Below, piece by piece: positions 13,050 to 17,893 of a stretch of 17,893 nt of DNA (positions are counted from its first letter, which is position 1; the number at the start of each line of letters is the position of its first letter). Below the pieces are notes generated by a model that was not told where the DNA came from, did not search any database, and was given only the letters and a program-made list of their open reading frames with translations. Source of the stretch: Escherichia phage vB_EcoS-716R1; sequence record ON470621.1; one strand, written 5' to 3'. The position numbers and the translations under genes are program-made.

Positions 13050-13343
13050 ATGAAAAAAATGTTGTTTTCTGCCGCTCTGGCAATGCTTATTACAGGATGT
13101 GCTCAACAGACGTTTACTGTTGGAAACAAACCGACAGCAGTAACACCAAAGGAAACCATCACCCATCATTTCTTCGTTTCGGGAATTGGACAGGAGAAAA
13201 CTGTTGATGCAGCCAAAATTTGTGGCGGCGCAGAAAATGTTGTTAAAACAGAAACCCAGCAAACATTCGTAAATGGATTTCTCGGTTTTATTACTTTAGG
13301 CATTTATACTCCACTGGAAGCGCGTGTGTATTGCTCACAATAA
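13050..13343 (+). CDS. bor: Bor/Iss-family outer-membrane lipoprotein
   Basis: MKKMLFSAALAMLITGCAQQTFTV...ETITHHFFVSGIGQ...VDAAKICGGAENVVKTETQQTFVNG...IYTPLEARVYCSQ is a near-match to lambda Bor as I remember it, with an LITGC lipobox. Convergent with Rz, as in lambda. AGGA Shine-Dalgarno before the ATG. Confidence 0.9.
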   Translation: MKKMLFSAALAMLITGCAQQTFTVGNKPTAVTPKETITHHFFVSGIGQEKTVDAAKICGGAENVVKTETQQTFVNGFLGFITLGIYTPLEARVYCSQ

Positions 13344-13374: not shown

Positions 13375-13836
13375 CTATCTGCACTGCTCATTAATATACT
13401 TCTGGGTTCCTTCCAGTTGTTTTTGCATTGTGATCAGCCTCTCTCTGAGGGTGAAATAATCCCGTTCAGCGGTGTCTGCCAGTCGGGGGCTGGTTGCATT
13501 ATCCACGCCGGAGGCGGTGGTGGCTTCACGCACTGACTGACAGACTGCTTTGATGTGCAACCGACGACGACCAGCGGCAACATCAGCGCGCAGAGTTTCA
13601 TTTTCAGCTTTCGCATTGGCTAATTCTCTCGAGTACTTTGCATCGAGTGCAGCAACATCACGCTGACGCTGCTGCATGTCAGCGATAGTGGCGATCGCCT
13701 GCTTCAGCTCACTGACTTTTTTATCACGCTGTTCTTTGTAGGCGATGGCGTTATCACGGTAATGATTGACCGCCCACGACAGGCAGACGATGATGCAGAT
13801 AACCAAAGCATAAATAATCGCGGCGACTCTGCTCAC
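13375..13836 (-). CDS. Rz: Spanin inner-membrane subunit Rz
   Basis: Very close to lambda Rz ([29 protein letters not shown]...[63 protein letters not shown]). Probable GTG start at 13836 overlapping the endolysin stop. Confidence 0.9.
13434..13616 (-). CDS. Rz1: Spanin outer-membrane lipoprotein Rz1, embedded in Rz in the +1 frame
   Basis: [59 protein letters not shown] closely matches lambda Rz1, including the VVGC lipobox and the penta-proline stretch. Confidence 0.85.
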
Positions 13837-14366
13837 TGCTCTATCCCCCAACAGGCTAATGCGCTTTCCTGGTCACGACGAATAACCTGTCCATAGCAGT
13901 TATTTGAACGTATGCGGCAATCGCGCCCACCATCTTTTATCCACCAGCGAATCGCCTCGCATGCGCCCTTACGATCACCGGCATTCAGCCGCTTATAAAA
14001 CGTCGACGGGAAACACTTACCGGGGCCAATGTTATAGGGACAGAATGACGCTATACCCGCTTTTTGTGGTTCGGTCAGTAGTACTTTAATATTGCGCTCC
14101 ACCCATGCCAGCGCCTTATCACGCTCAATGGCGTTGACCTGGTCGCATTTTTCCTTCGACAGTTTCATACCGGGAAAAACGGGTTTTCCATCCACCATCG
14201 TGGCACCCCGACAGATGGTCCAGATGCCGGACCCATCGCGGTATGCCGTTGTGTGGTTACCTTCTTTTTCATCCAGAAACTGGTCGAGAATATCAGGCGC
14301 GGGCGCACCGACGGCAATCAGTGCCAGAACGGCAGCCGACAGGCCGTATCTGATTTTTGCGTTCAT
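13833..14366 (-). CDS. SAR endolysin (T4-lysozyme-like, GH24)
   Basis: The N-terminus [18 protein letters not shown] is a weakly hydrophobic Gly/Ala-rich signal-anchor-release segment. It is followed by E...D...T catalytic spacing ([19 protein letters not shown]) of T4-type lysozymes. Confidence 0.85.
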
Positions 14367-14429
14367 GGATATTTATCAGGATTTATCGGTTTCTGCCCAC
14401 GGACAGGTTTATCTGTTCCGGTCAGTGAC

Positions 14430-14780
14430 TTAAGGTTGTGATTCCGGAGGAGTCTTCAGAGAACCAGTAATTCTTCCCGGTAGCTTTCCTTTGTAGGTTA
14501 TCCATACATTCTGCGCCTCTAAAATTACGGGGCGCTTTTCCGGCGACTGCTCATCCCCTTCACATAACCCGGCAGCAACATCCAGGAAGACCTGTCTGAT
14601 ACTCATTCTGGCTGCTGCCTCATAAAACTCCAGCGCGGCACCTTCAACACGGTCCAGCGAGATGTCCAGGTCAAAAATTTCACCGTCAAAGCGTTTTTTG
14701 TCCCGTAACGCTAAAGTTACCGTAACTTTATTCTCAAAATTGCGGATCCCTTTCACAATCAGTTCATAGTTTTGAGTCAT
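14430..14780 (-). CDS. Hypothetical protein (116 aa) inserted between holin and endolysin
   Basis: The ATG at 14780 is 4 nt after the holin TAA and preceded by GGAGAG. No transmembrane segment or motif I recognise; acidic, soluble-looking. A 63-nt gap separates it from the endolysin start. Confidence 0.6.
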   Translation of the reverse strand: MTQNYELIVKGIRNFENKVTVTLALRDKKRFDGEIFDLDISLDRVEGAALEFYEAAARMSIRQVFLDVAAGLCEGDEQSPEKRPVILEAQNVWITYKGKLPGRITGSLKTPPESQP

Positions 14781-14784
14781 TGAA

Positions 14785-15000
14785 TTACTCTCCCCGTGCC
14801 GCCTTACGACGGTCCTCTCTGATTTTGAAATACAGGTTAGTCAGATATGTCAGCAGCCCAAACAGCAGACTCCCCAGCACGCCTATTGCCGCCCACTGAG
14901 ACGGGGAAACCCTGTCCAGCAACTGCAGGAACCAGTAGCCCGTTCCCACCGCTGACGTGGTGTATGACACACCTGTTGTGATTTTTTCCATCTGGTCCAT
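14785..15000 (-). CDS. Pinholin, S21 class, with dual-start motif
   Basis: [71 protein letters not shown] closely matches phage 21 S as I remember it. There are two in-frame ATGs (M1, M4) for antiholin/holin, two transmembrane segments, and GGAG upstream. The track ORF extends upstream from a GTG. Confidence 0.85.
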
Positions 15001-15307
15001 ACCCCGTCTCCCGTTATCCGGAAGCTGACAACAATAAAAAAGCCACCAGTTAACTACTGATGGCTCTGATAACTCATGCAAGCGTCTCAGACGATCCACT
15101 GACACTACCGGTGAGTTTAACGATACCTTCCATTTGACTGGCTCACTTTTTATGATGATGCCGGTGTATTTATCTCCAGCACCAGACTTTCTATCTCAAC
15201 GCCATACGTTGCATTTTTGGTAATATCCGTCAGCGTCAGTGCATTTAGTCCCACTGCCAGACCGTCTTTTATGGTCTGGAATGCCGGGCCAGTACGATGA
15301 CGTAGTA

Positions 15308-15496
15308 TCACTCCGGCTCAGTTGCACCACTGACCACCACATCACCTTCTGCTGCAATCGCCTGCATCAGGGTATAAGGGGTTATGGCCACCGGACTACC
15401 AAACGGCTGCCAGCCCTCTTTCAGTTTATGTGTCAGCTTTTCCGCAAGATCTGACGGCGGCGCCGCCCTGACAACATCATAGTGTTTAAATGCCAT
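15308..15496 (-). CDS. Conserved lambdoid-prophage hypothetical protein (DUF1737-like) upstream of the holin
   Basis: 62-67 aa ORF (MAFKHYDVVRAAPPSDLAEKLTHKLKEGWQPFGSPVAITPYTLMQAIAAEGDVVVSGATEPE). The family assignment is from memory. The start is ambiguous between the ATG at 15511 and the ATG at 15496. Confidence 0.5.
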   Translation of the reverse strand: MAFKHYDVVRAAPPSDLAEKLTHKLKEGWQPFGSPVAITPYTLMQAIAAEGDVVVSGATEPE

Positions 15497-15756: not shown

Positions 15757-16092
15757 ATGAAGTGGATTGTAATTGATACAGTTATCCAGCCATCATGCGG
15801 AATATCTTTTTCAGTCATATGGAGTAAAGTAAAATTAATAATCTGGTATCAATCGGATGCTTTCTTACCTCCTGAAAGTATATTTACACTGACTCACACA
15901 GGTATCATGCTCAATAACAAAGTGCTACCTGTAACCATTTACAACGTAGTACCATTCAATAAAACATTCTGGAATTTAATCAAAAACAGCCAGGAATGCC
16001 CTACAAATACAGATAACGTATTGAATGAATGCTTTAATAACCGTTGCATTCTGCAAATATGTCCTTATGGACTAAAACAACAAAGTCCATAA
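15757..16092 (+). CDS. Hypothetical protein (111 aa) in a low-GC island, opposite strand to the late operon
   Basis: AAGGAAG Shine-Dalgarno 5 nt before the ATG. A 111-codon open frame in very AT-rich DNA is unlikely by chance because stop codons are AT-rich. Cys-containing C-terminus ([16 protein letters not shown]); no recognisable family. Confidence 0.45.
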
Positions 16093-16109: not shown

Positions 16110-16320
16110 GACAAAATCAATATAAACAGCCCCTCCGGAGAGGGGCTGGAGAGTGGCGCTATGTGCCATTGCATGGTGCCGGGTGCCTCCCGGTGAATTC
16201 AGTACCAGCACCTGAATCCGCGATTATCCCATATACCTACTCGCTGATTACCCCTCCGCACAGGGGGATTCACCATGCGAAATTTTTTAACAAACTTCCC
16301 GCCGGCCAGACAATAATCGC
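16110..16320 (-). repeat. Copy 1 of a ~200-bp structured repeat unit (candidate sRNA gene with promoter-like box and intrinsic terminator)
   Basis: Shares with copy 2 the blocks GCATGGTGAATCCCCCT, ATTCAG...CTGAAT stem, ACCGGGAGGC.CC.GGCACCATGC, and an identical hairpin AGCCCCTCTCCGGAGGGGCT followed by a T-rich run (minus sense). Upstream conserved TTGTCTGG...TTTGTTAAAAA box. Confidence 0.6.
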
Positions 16321-16584
16321 CAGCCTGAATTATGAGCAACGTGGCATTTTACGGGAAAACTGTTTTCTGCAGTAAAAAGGCCCGCCGGAGCGAGCCTGGA
16401 AGGATAGCGGTCATGTGATGCCGGTTTCCCGGTAACTCAGCATCGGTATCTGAGTCAACGTTTTCTCTACTGGGTCATTTCCGATACGTTCCGCCTTCCG
16501 GCAGACTTTCATCACGTCAGAAAATATAGCACCCTGAGTAACAGGACAGTACTCAGAATTCAGGAAACTGTGACACATCCTGCA

Positions 16585-16790
16585 CAGAAAAGCCCCTCCG
16601 GAGAGGGGCTGAAGTATAGCCTAATTTCTGTCTGTCGCATGGTGCCAGGGGCCTCCCGGTAAATTCAGCCTGTCTACTGAATTTGCATGTTCTCTGGATC
16701 ATACACTTTGCCAGATGCCCCGCCGCTGAGGGGGATTCACCATGCGATGTAATTTTTAACAAATTCTCCGGCAGCCAGACAATCATCAAG
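16585..16790 (-). repeat. Copy 2 of the same structured repeat unit
   Basis: Same conserved blocks and the identical 20-nt hairpin as copy 1. The internal region diverges with indels, while the ATTCAG/CTGAAT stem is kept with a different loop. Confidence 0.6.
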
Positions 16791-17125: not shown

Positions 17126-17201
17126 TGGTGGCCCTTGCTGGATTTGAACCAGCGACCTGGCGATTATGAGTCGCTCGCTCTCACCACTGAGCTAAAGGGC
17201 C
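17126..17201 (-). tRNA. tRNA with CAU anticodon, most like the minor isoleucine tRNA (ileX/ileZ type)
   Basis: Minus sense GGCCCTTTAGCTCAGTGGTGAGAGCGAGCGACTCATAATCGCCAGGTCGCTGGTTCAAATCCAGCAAGGGCCACCA folds as a cloverleaf (7-bp acceptor GGCCCTT/AAGGGCC, GCTC/GAGC D-stem, GCTGG/CCAGC T-stem, encoded CCA). Overall similarity is to E. coli ileX rather than to a Met tRNA, judged from memory. Confidence 0.8.
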
Positions 17202-17344: not shown

Positions 17345-17893
17345 TTACCTAGTTACCTTTTTTAACTGCCGCTCAGCCCATGCTTCTTCAATATCAAACC
17401 GGGTCACCAGCGCATCATAGAATTTCTTAACTGTTTTTTCCCATGACGCGCGTGTTATCTGGTTTGTCACCTCGCATATAGCATTAAATGTCTCCGTTGA
17501 TGGTAGTCTTTCATAGCCACGACCACCACAACGCTGGCAGTCTCTGATAACAGGCATACCACGTTTTACCGACTCTTCACGATGAATGGCGACACCACGC
17601 CCACGGCAATCCTTACAGGCGGTGGAAACCTCACCCTTTCCGCCACACTCCGGACAGGCAACTTTTACCACCTCCCTGACTTTTTTCCATTCTTCCCAGT
17701 AAGACGAATACACACCTTTCGTACACTTTGCCCATACCGGCGGCTTACCATCCGGATACTGGACCTTGTTTGTAAAAACTACGCTTTCAATAAATTTTTC
17801 CCCATAGCAACAAGGGCACTGCTTTTTACTCGCTGCGCTGCGGGCATAATCCTCAAAAGCGTACGAATGCGTATTTTCATGAAAGGAGATCAC
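17345..17893 (-). CDS. Q: Late antiterminator Q (lambda Q family); 5' end beyond the window
   Basis: The C-terminal two thirds align with lambda Q (YAFEDYARSAAS, zinc-finger cysteines CPECGGKG...CKDCRGRG...CQRCGGRGYERLP, WEKTVKKFYDALV, ending KVTR). The ORF is open to the window edge at 17893, so the N-terminus is missing. Confidence 0.85.
   Translation of the reverse strand: MISFHENTHSYAFEDYARSAASKKQCPCCYGEKFIESVVFTNKVQYPDGKPPVWAKCTKGVYSSYWEEWKKVREVVKVACPECGGKGEVSTACKDCRGRGVAIHREESVKRGMPVIRDCQRCGGRGYERLPSTETFNAICEVTNQITRASWEKTVKKFYDALVTRFDIEEAWAERQLKKVTR

Follow-up and report, generated by a model that had tools for sequence, protein, structure and literature searches.

The ydfR-family (DUF1327) gene between holin and endolysin of an Escherichia coli prophage: an optional late-operon passenger with a tentative link to RNase E

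Gene organization of the lysis cassette

We analysed a stretch of 17,893 nucleotides from Escherichia phage vB_EcoS-716R1 (ON470621.1; the whole stretch is called the window below). Its lysis genes are on the minus strand, and a gene of the ydfR family lies between the holin and the endolysin genes. The features of the cassette are listed here in the direction of transcription.

14785..15000, minus strand: S21-type class II holin (pinholin), 71 aa; PF04971, 9e-33; annotated 'class II holin family protein'
14788..14793, minus strand: GGAGAG Shine-Dalgarno, 7 nt upstream of the ydfR ATG; read from the sequence, within the last holin codons R-G-E
14430..14780, minus strand: ydfR-family gene (DUF1327), 116 aa plus stop codon; ORF list, PF07041, PHROG 406/2091, WP_000193264.1
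14559..14780, minus strand: conserved N-terminal domain of the ydfR product, codons 1-74; AF2 model, alignment and dN/dS
14433..14558, minus strand: variable middle/C-terminal segment, codons 75-116; alignment, pLDDT < 50, dN/dS 0.3-0.6
14367..14429, minus strand: non-coding spacer, 63 nt; junction comparison
13833..14366, minus strand: SAR endolysin, rrrQ-type allele ('MNAKIRYG...'); PF00959; annotated rrrQ lysozyme
13375..13851, minus strand: Rz spanin gene; PF03245
13434-13616, minus strand: Rz1, embedded in Rz; PF06085

The ORF list places the ydfR-family ORF on the minus strand from 14780 to 14430, with an ATG start and 116 codons for amino acids. We read the junctions directly from the sequence. 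The ATG (14780-14778) is preceded by a TTCA gap (14784-14781) and by the TAA stop of the holin gene (14787-14785), and the minus strand reads GCA CGG GGA GAG TAA, then TTCA, then ATG ACT CAA. At the other end, the ydfR stop codon occupies 14432-14430 and the endolysin ATG is at 14366. The GGAGAG element was kept in all the cassettes compared.

The first-pass annotation of this DNA had described a 116-aa ORF with an ATG start 4 nt after the holin stop, having its own GGAGAG Shine-Dalgarno and separated from the endolysin by a 63-nt spacer. We found the ORF as described, on the minus strand, which had been left unstated. The 4-nt distance agreed with the direct read, GGAGAG is present at 14793-14788 inside the 3' end of the holin gene, and the spacer, 14367-14429, measures 63 nt. 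The neighbours had been named as a holin and an endolysin, and the Pfam matches (PF04971 and PF00959) gave the same assignment. The protein was also correctly portrayed as acidic and devoid of a transmembrane segment: its pI of 5.2 is mildly acidic, and over 19-aa stretches its Kyte-Doolittle hydropathy peaks at 1.03, vs 1.70 for the holin used as control.

A consensus scan for promoters and terminators covered the minus strand from 15000 to 14367 (holin start to endolysin) and gave no site, and an Rfam search gave no family within the lysis cassette. With no such signal for the gene alone on its strand, it is read from the late lysis transcript, in line with the earlier suggestion that it is expressed at lysis. 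We concluded that the Q-dependent late transcript carries ydfR and that translation of the gene starts at the holin-embedded GGAGAG.

Several other elements were observed around the cassette. A strong hairpin resembling a terminator (a 12-bp stem and then a T-run; 15039-15067, minus strand) lies ∼40 nt upstream of the holin ATG. It precedes the holin gene, and therefore a Q-modified polymerase would need to read through it to reach the lysis genes. Two full-length copies of the STnc100 sRNA (16118-16306 and 16582-16775, both minus strand; 132 and 138 bits) and a tRNA-Ile (17129-17201, minus strand) lie between the Q gene and the lysis cassette. The cassette is also flanked by cargo genes on the opposite strand, the iss/bor serum-survival lipoprotein gene (13050-13343, plus strand) and the anti-adaptor gene iraM (15757-16092, plus strand).

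Several complete E. coli genomes contain a prophage that matches all 17.9 kb of the window with 100% identity. In the annotation of one such identical genome (L021), the prohead protease gene carries a frameshift, and the genes for the DUF1737 protein and the Q antiterminator are truncated (7822-8420, 15311-15496 and 17345-17866). Because of these lesions in the annotation, we take the window's copy of the prophage to be probably defective, and the lysis genes in it might not be expressed at any time.

The gene belongs to the YdfR (DUF1327) family

The protein matched the Pfam family DUF1327 (PF07041) with 142.4 bits (cut-off 25; E = 5e-42), and the match spanned residues 1-112 of the protein and positions 1-92 of the 93 in the profile. 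It also matched PHROG 406/2091, which is labelled 'unknown function', while an NCBIfam search gave no model for it. In the 100% identical genomes, the NCBI pipeline has placed the RefSeq entry WP_000193264.1, 'YdfR family protein', at exactly 14430-14780. The first-pass annotation had assigned the protein to no recognised family, and this has to be revised: the gene is the long-catalogued E. coli prophage gene ydfR, whose family and position were already known. That annotation had also considered a match to a lysis accessory protein already described at this position. In identity, there is such a described protein, YdfR in the same slot of the K-12 prophage Qin; in function there is not, as no lysis role has been described for it.

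The gene is abundant. Of the 5,426 complete E. coli genomes searched by megablast with the ORF, 4,314 (∼80%) have a copy, and some have as many as nine; tblastn found DUF1327 in 100 phage records, which were mostly Stx1a and Stx2c phages, H-19B, BP-4795, YYZ-2008 and temperate phages induced from ECOR strains. Only 90 relatives came back when 1.84 billion representative proteins were searched with a profile. The literature under the family name DUF1327 came to a genomics paper only, and 'YDFR' is used in publications mostly for a melanoma cell line. Having a Pfam family, a K-12 name and routine NCBI annotation, and being present in most E. coli genomes, the gene is of little interest as an 'unrecognised' one. 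Its interest is rather that DUF1327 is among the most widespread E. coli prophage genes annotated without a function, and that it sits in the late operons of Stx phages.

Lysis cassettes with and without ydfR

The gene order in the window is that of the K-12 prophage Qin, namely essQ (holin), ydfR, rrrQ (lysozyme) and rzpQ/rzoQ, and the Qin junction is identical in form (GGAGAG-TAA-4 nt-ATG). The same slot holds ydfR in H-19B, Perceval, HannyBb, PhiR12_2, Stx1_499, Evi and Stx2-86; in H-19B the homologue is unannotated in the gap between S and R. Many lambdoid prophages of E. coli and Shigella have this gene, for a small soluble protein, directly behind an S21-type pinholin gene. Among inducible, plaque-forming relatives, PhiR40_1 and PhiR49_2 encode a protein 97% identical to that of the window. 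In all the E. coli phages examined, the 5' end of ydfR lies 3-5 nt after the holin stop. Its 3' end and its distance to R vary among them, from an ATGA overlap up to ∼500 nt.

The first-pass annotation had asked whether holin and endolysin are adjacent in relatives, and this is the case in two cassettes. In DLP12 of K-12, essD and rrrD abut without ydfR, and the Stx2 phage VT2phi_272, which has no ydfR either, starts its lysozyme gene 4 nt behind the holin stop, at the same GGAGAG-TAA. Among phage records, 426 carry an S21-type holin vs 100 with DUF1327. Because cassettes with the same type of holin work without it, ydfR is dispensable for lysis, and we regard it from this comparison as an optional passenger of the late operon that the lysis machinery does not need.

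We also compared the region preceding the endolysin. The 3' ∼27 nt of the spacer (within 14367-14400, minus strand) are a conserved AU-rich leader, GAAACCGATAAATCCTGATAAATATCC, placed before the rrrQ-type endolysin and found in every DUF1327-bearing cassette compared. A Shine-Dalgarno scan before this endolysin gave none (best 2/6). We counted 89 phage records with the rrrQ-type allele and the leader, and they are distributed over organisms in nearly the same way as the 100 DUF1327 records. In K-12 Qin and in HannyBb, the ydfR stop overlaps the endolysin start (ATGA).

Distant relatives of the family are stand-alone N-domains of 72-76 aa in prophages of Yersinia, Sodalis, Salmonella and Cronobacter. 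They lie between the tail genes M (PF05939) and L (PF05100) or follow a lambda tail-I-like gene. A tandem-domain form is found between Q and a holin of the Phage_holin_2_3 type. As the N-domain is present in tail modules and beside another type of holin, the domain is not specific to lysis. Judged from these positions, the N-domain is a passenger of late operons at several mosaic joints. The presence or absence of the gene among otherwise collinear phages, at module junctions, is the behaviour of a moron.

Convergent reverse-strand ORFs were observed downstream of some DUF1327 genes. Only three of the nine are related to each other, and none has a Pfam match. The three are ∼100-aa ORFs that are 61-75% identical (L012, 696-1001; L016, 693-992; phage Evi (L008), 2244-2540; all minus strand); L012 and L016 are tail-module loci, and the Evi copy is in the S-R gap. 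The remaining six are unrelated. These positions suggest that a DUF1327 gene and the ∼100-aa convergent ORF may have moved between late-operon positions as a two-gene unit. We rejected a single partner family for the downstream reverse-strand ORFs, as only three of the nine are related and the window has no such ORF.

A conserved N-terminal domain is followed by a variable tail

In the AF2 model, residues 1-75 have a mean pLDDT of 89.7 and a pTM of 0.74, and the predicted N-domain is a beta-beta-beta-helix arrangement with antiparallel strands (residues 5-14, 18-27 and 34-43; helix 50-74). In the full-length model, residues 75-116 are at pLDDT < 50. In an alignment of 33 sequences, Y53-E54 are invariant, even in members that are only 25-30% identical, and Y5, L7 and A57 are nearly so. 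The start of the helix carries the invariant (F/Y)YE motif of DUF1327, which is present in the window protein.

Pairwise Nei-Gojobori comparisons with diverged homologues (dS from 0.4 to >1.5) gave a dN/dS of 0.24-0.32 for the N-domain. The middle segment is under weaker constraint than the N-domain, with a dN/dS of 0.3-0.6. The profile match (PF07041, E = 5e-42), the N-domain dN/dS of about 0.25 and the confident AF2 model argue strongly that the ORF is a genuine protein-coding gene and not a chance ORF. In the H-19B subgroup (L002, L006, L007 and L009; codons 1-72), non-synonymous differences exceeded synonymous ones (13-14 vs 2-4.5); the dN/dS was 0.9-2.1 with the changes clustered in residues 26-48, and the counts are too low to claim positive selection.

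The tail formed by residues 75-116 is common to most family members and absent from K-12 YdfR. The window copy is without the extra coiled-coil-like extension of 60-70 aa that is found in the 176- and 183-aa forms, and other DUF1327 members have further domains and reach 287 aa. These alignments indicate that the tail of the window protein is one among several interchangeable, recombining tails.

A related arrangement was seen in the Stx2a phage Stx2_14744 (L019, 1529-2014), whose post-holin gene has no DUF1327 N-domain and carries the coiled-coil and C-terminal modules present at the end of long DUF1327 proteins (Stx1_499, P0126). This gene has the C-terminal modules without the N-domain, and the modules are therefore separable. 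In the same phage, a 233-aa unannotated reverse-strand ORF (1763-2464) overlaps the post-holin gene region. The database also contains ORFs in which holin and YdfR are fused (PF04971 + PF07041; P0025, P0034, P0041, P0083, P0090 and P0111), YdfR proteins in which the N-domain is duplicated internally (P0073 and P0096) and a YdfR-Rz1 fusion (P0066). These forms may be artefacts of assembly or frameshift, or real rearrangements.

Searches for a function and the RNase E lead

A sequence search of the PDB with the ydfR protein gave nothing at E <= 1. Foldseek gave no significant match when the full-length model was compared with the PDB and BFVD, or the N-domain model with the PDB. We discarded the Foldseek matches to PTP sub-structures, to de novo designed sheets and to PURA/dsRBD as partial and insignificant, those to PURA/dsRBD being weak (probability <= 0.2). 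The sequence and structure comparisons showed no likeness to RNase E- or RNA-binding folds (RapZ, RraA, Dip, Hfq, dsRBD and PUR), and the defence HMMs of PADLOC-DB gave no family at E <= 1.

The only experimental lead that we found on YdfR function is the work of Göpel et al. (RNA Biol 2026, PMC13232886). In their two-hybrid screen, a T25 fusion to residues 1-72 of K-12 YdfR was recovered three times. This fragment gave a signal with Rng, with full-length Rne and with Rne1-597, while full-length YdfR gave a signal only with Rne1-597 and was negative with Rne-FL, Rne1-498 and Rne1-415 (PMC13232886). Chromosomally encoded Rne1-598-FLAG co-eluted with Strep-YdfR and not with the PtsN control, and DNase-resistant nucleic acid co-purified with YdfR in amounts comparable to RapZ; the authors allow a contaminant as the source of this RNA (PMC13232886). 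As the lysates received no nuclease treatment (PMC13232886), the contact between RNase E and YdfR could be bridged by RNA. When YdfR was overproduced, growth was not slowed and few transcripts changed (PMC13232886), which argues against RNase E being strongly affected in cells that are not infected. Hardly any ydfR reads were obtained from K-12 grown under standard conditions (PMC13232886).

These RNase E tests used K-12 YdfR, whose C-terminus differs from that of the window protein. Over the interacting fragment (residues 1-72), the two proteins are 80% identical and 95% similar. The N-domain has a pI of 4.9, and such acidity is unusual for an RNA binder. Two further reports were considered. 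The gene is cited as being among the envelope-integrity genes of a genome-wide screen (PMC13232886), and we did not find ydfR in the main text of that screen's paper. One screen lists a 3-fold increase in streptomycin MIC on ydfR overexpression, which we judged too weak to build on.

Weighing of the possible roles of YdfR

The position of the gene invites the idea, already put forward in the first-pass annotation, that YdfR is a lysis-timing or accessory protein acting on the pinholin or the SAR endolysin. In E. coli phages, the gene always comes directly behind an S21-type holin at a constant distance of 4 nt, it is tightly linked to one endolysin allele, and the envelope-integrity listing reported in PMC13232886, although not found in the screen's main text, would fit as well. 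The linkage is, however, what adjacency alone predicts. YdfR has neither a TM nor a SAR segment, unlike antiholins and releasins, and neither a growth nor a lysis phenotype was seen when it was overproduced in K-12 (PMC13232886). The gene is absent from about three quarters of the phage records with an S21-type holin, whereas a lysis regulator would be expected to accompany its cognate holin consistently (100 vs 426 records). The conserved domain also occurs in tail modules (between M and L), beside unrelated holins and in other genera. These observations weaken the idea, and we consider such a role quite unlikely. About equally doubtful to us is that the ORF serves as a cis-acting translational device, which would bring ribosomes to an endolysin start having no Shine-Dalgarno of its own, the length and distance of the ORF setting the holin:endolysin ratio and the protein being secondary. 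The rrrQ-type endolysin start lacking a Shine-Dalgarno (best 2/6), with its conserved AU-rich leader, and the ATGA overlap of the ydfR stop with the R start in Qin and HannyBb are in its favour. So is the finding that in ydfR-less cassettes a different R allele starts at this 4-nt distance and uses the GGAGAG within the holin gene. But the gaps of 50-500 nt between ydfR and R in the window and in many phages, sometimes with reverse-strand genes inside, make direct coupling impossible there; moreover, the amino-acid sequence of YdfR is under purifying selection, and its conserved domain, predicted to be well folded, is also found far from any endolysin.

A defence, anti-defence or superinfection-exclusion cargo (a moron) is somewhat easier to defend, and we still hold it to be unlikely. 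Such a cargo would fit the presence/absence polymorphism, the hypervariable and module-shuffled 3' part, the convergent reverse-strand ORFs often found alongside at known moron hot spots, the small and acidic protein, and the excess of non-synonymous over synonymous differences in the H-19B subgroup (13-14 vs 2-4.5, low counts). The defence role proposed in the first-pass annotation found no match in PADLOC, though, and late expression is atypical of anti-defence genes. With almost no ydfR reads in growing K-12 (PMC13232886), expression in the lysogen is not obvious, and the consensus scan gave neither a promoter nor a terminator for the window copy. An autonomous moron was rejected for the window copy, the scan being empty on the gene strand in the cassette. 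Still more remote, and in our estimate hardly credible, is that ydfR is a functionless, decaying hitch-hiker kept by its linkage to the lysis genes. The defective look of the window prophage (protease frameshifted, Q and DUF1737 truncated), the many truncated, fused and duplicated DUF1327 forms and the poorly constrained tail region (residues 75-116) could be read in this way. The N-domain, on the other hand, keeps a dN/dS of about 0.25 across lineages with dS > 1, the ORF is intact in plaque-forming phages, and the domain is conserved in several genera.

The best explanation in our view, put forward tentatively and with less than even confidence, is that the YdfR N-domain is a late-phase binder of RNase E and/or RNA. 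We favour it because, over the interacting fragment, the window protein shares 80% identity with K-12 YdfR. By binding the catalytic N-terminal half of RNase E, RNA or both, the N-domain would tune the processing or decay of particular transcripts late in the lytic cycle, the likeliest target being the long phage late mRNA. In this view YdfR would be an adaptor or shield with specific targets and not a global inhibitor of RNase E. The place of the gene beside the holin would then reflect the time of its production and the mosaic joints, rather than a role in breaking the membrane or the wall. If this RNase E/RNA lead were true during induction, YdfR would add a temperate-phage member to the few phage manipulators of the host RNA degradosome, and it could affect late-gene expression, including that of stx-linked genes. 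A narrower version, which we regard as very improbable, is that the YdfR adaptor brings RNase E to the mRNA of the lysis cassette or blocks it there, one conceivable site being the AU-rich leader without a Shine-Dalgarno, and in this way sets the holin:endolysin ratio and the time of lysis. If true, this would be a new class of lysis regulator working via host RNA decay and not via the membrane.

Comparison with known systems

The closest known relative is K-12 YdfR (b1555, P76160) of prophage Qin. It belongs to the same family and lies in the same essQ-rrrQ slot, with the same 4-nt gap and GGAGAG, and the two proteins share 80% identity over residues 1-74. Past residue 74 the tails are unrelated (116 aa in the window vs 103 aa in K-12), and the 63-nt spacer of the window contrasts with Qin, where the ydfR stop overlaps the endolysin ATG. 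The S-R ORFs of Stx phages (H-19B, BP-4795, YYZ-2008 and Stx2-86 orf5), which are unannotated or hypothetical, resemble the window gene in position, family and segment 75-113. They differ in having ∼63% identity and a different strand-2/3 region (EIGGYPSLLLPDV), and some of them carry 60-190 aa of extra C-terminal modules compared with the window copy.

Lysis accessory proteins include the antiholins S21-71 and T4 RI, the releasin of phage Mu and the spanins, and they have TM, SAR or lipoprotein anchors. Like them, ydfR is encoded in the lysis cassette and co-expressed with holin and endolysin. Unlike them, YdfR has no TM or SAR anchor, is optional, and has its domain also outside lysis cassettes.

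Known phage modulators of RNase E include T4 Srd, T7 gp0.7 and phiKZ Dip. The window protein is unlike RNase E partners in having no likeness in sequence or fold to any solved structure. With these and with the host proteins RapZ and RraA/RraB, the likeness is in the proposed mode only, namely a contact with RNase E in which RNA would be presented or shielded. Göpel et al. (PMC13232886) grouped YdfR with the RapZ-like binders of the catalytic half of RNase E.
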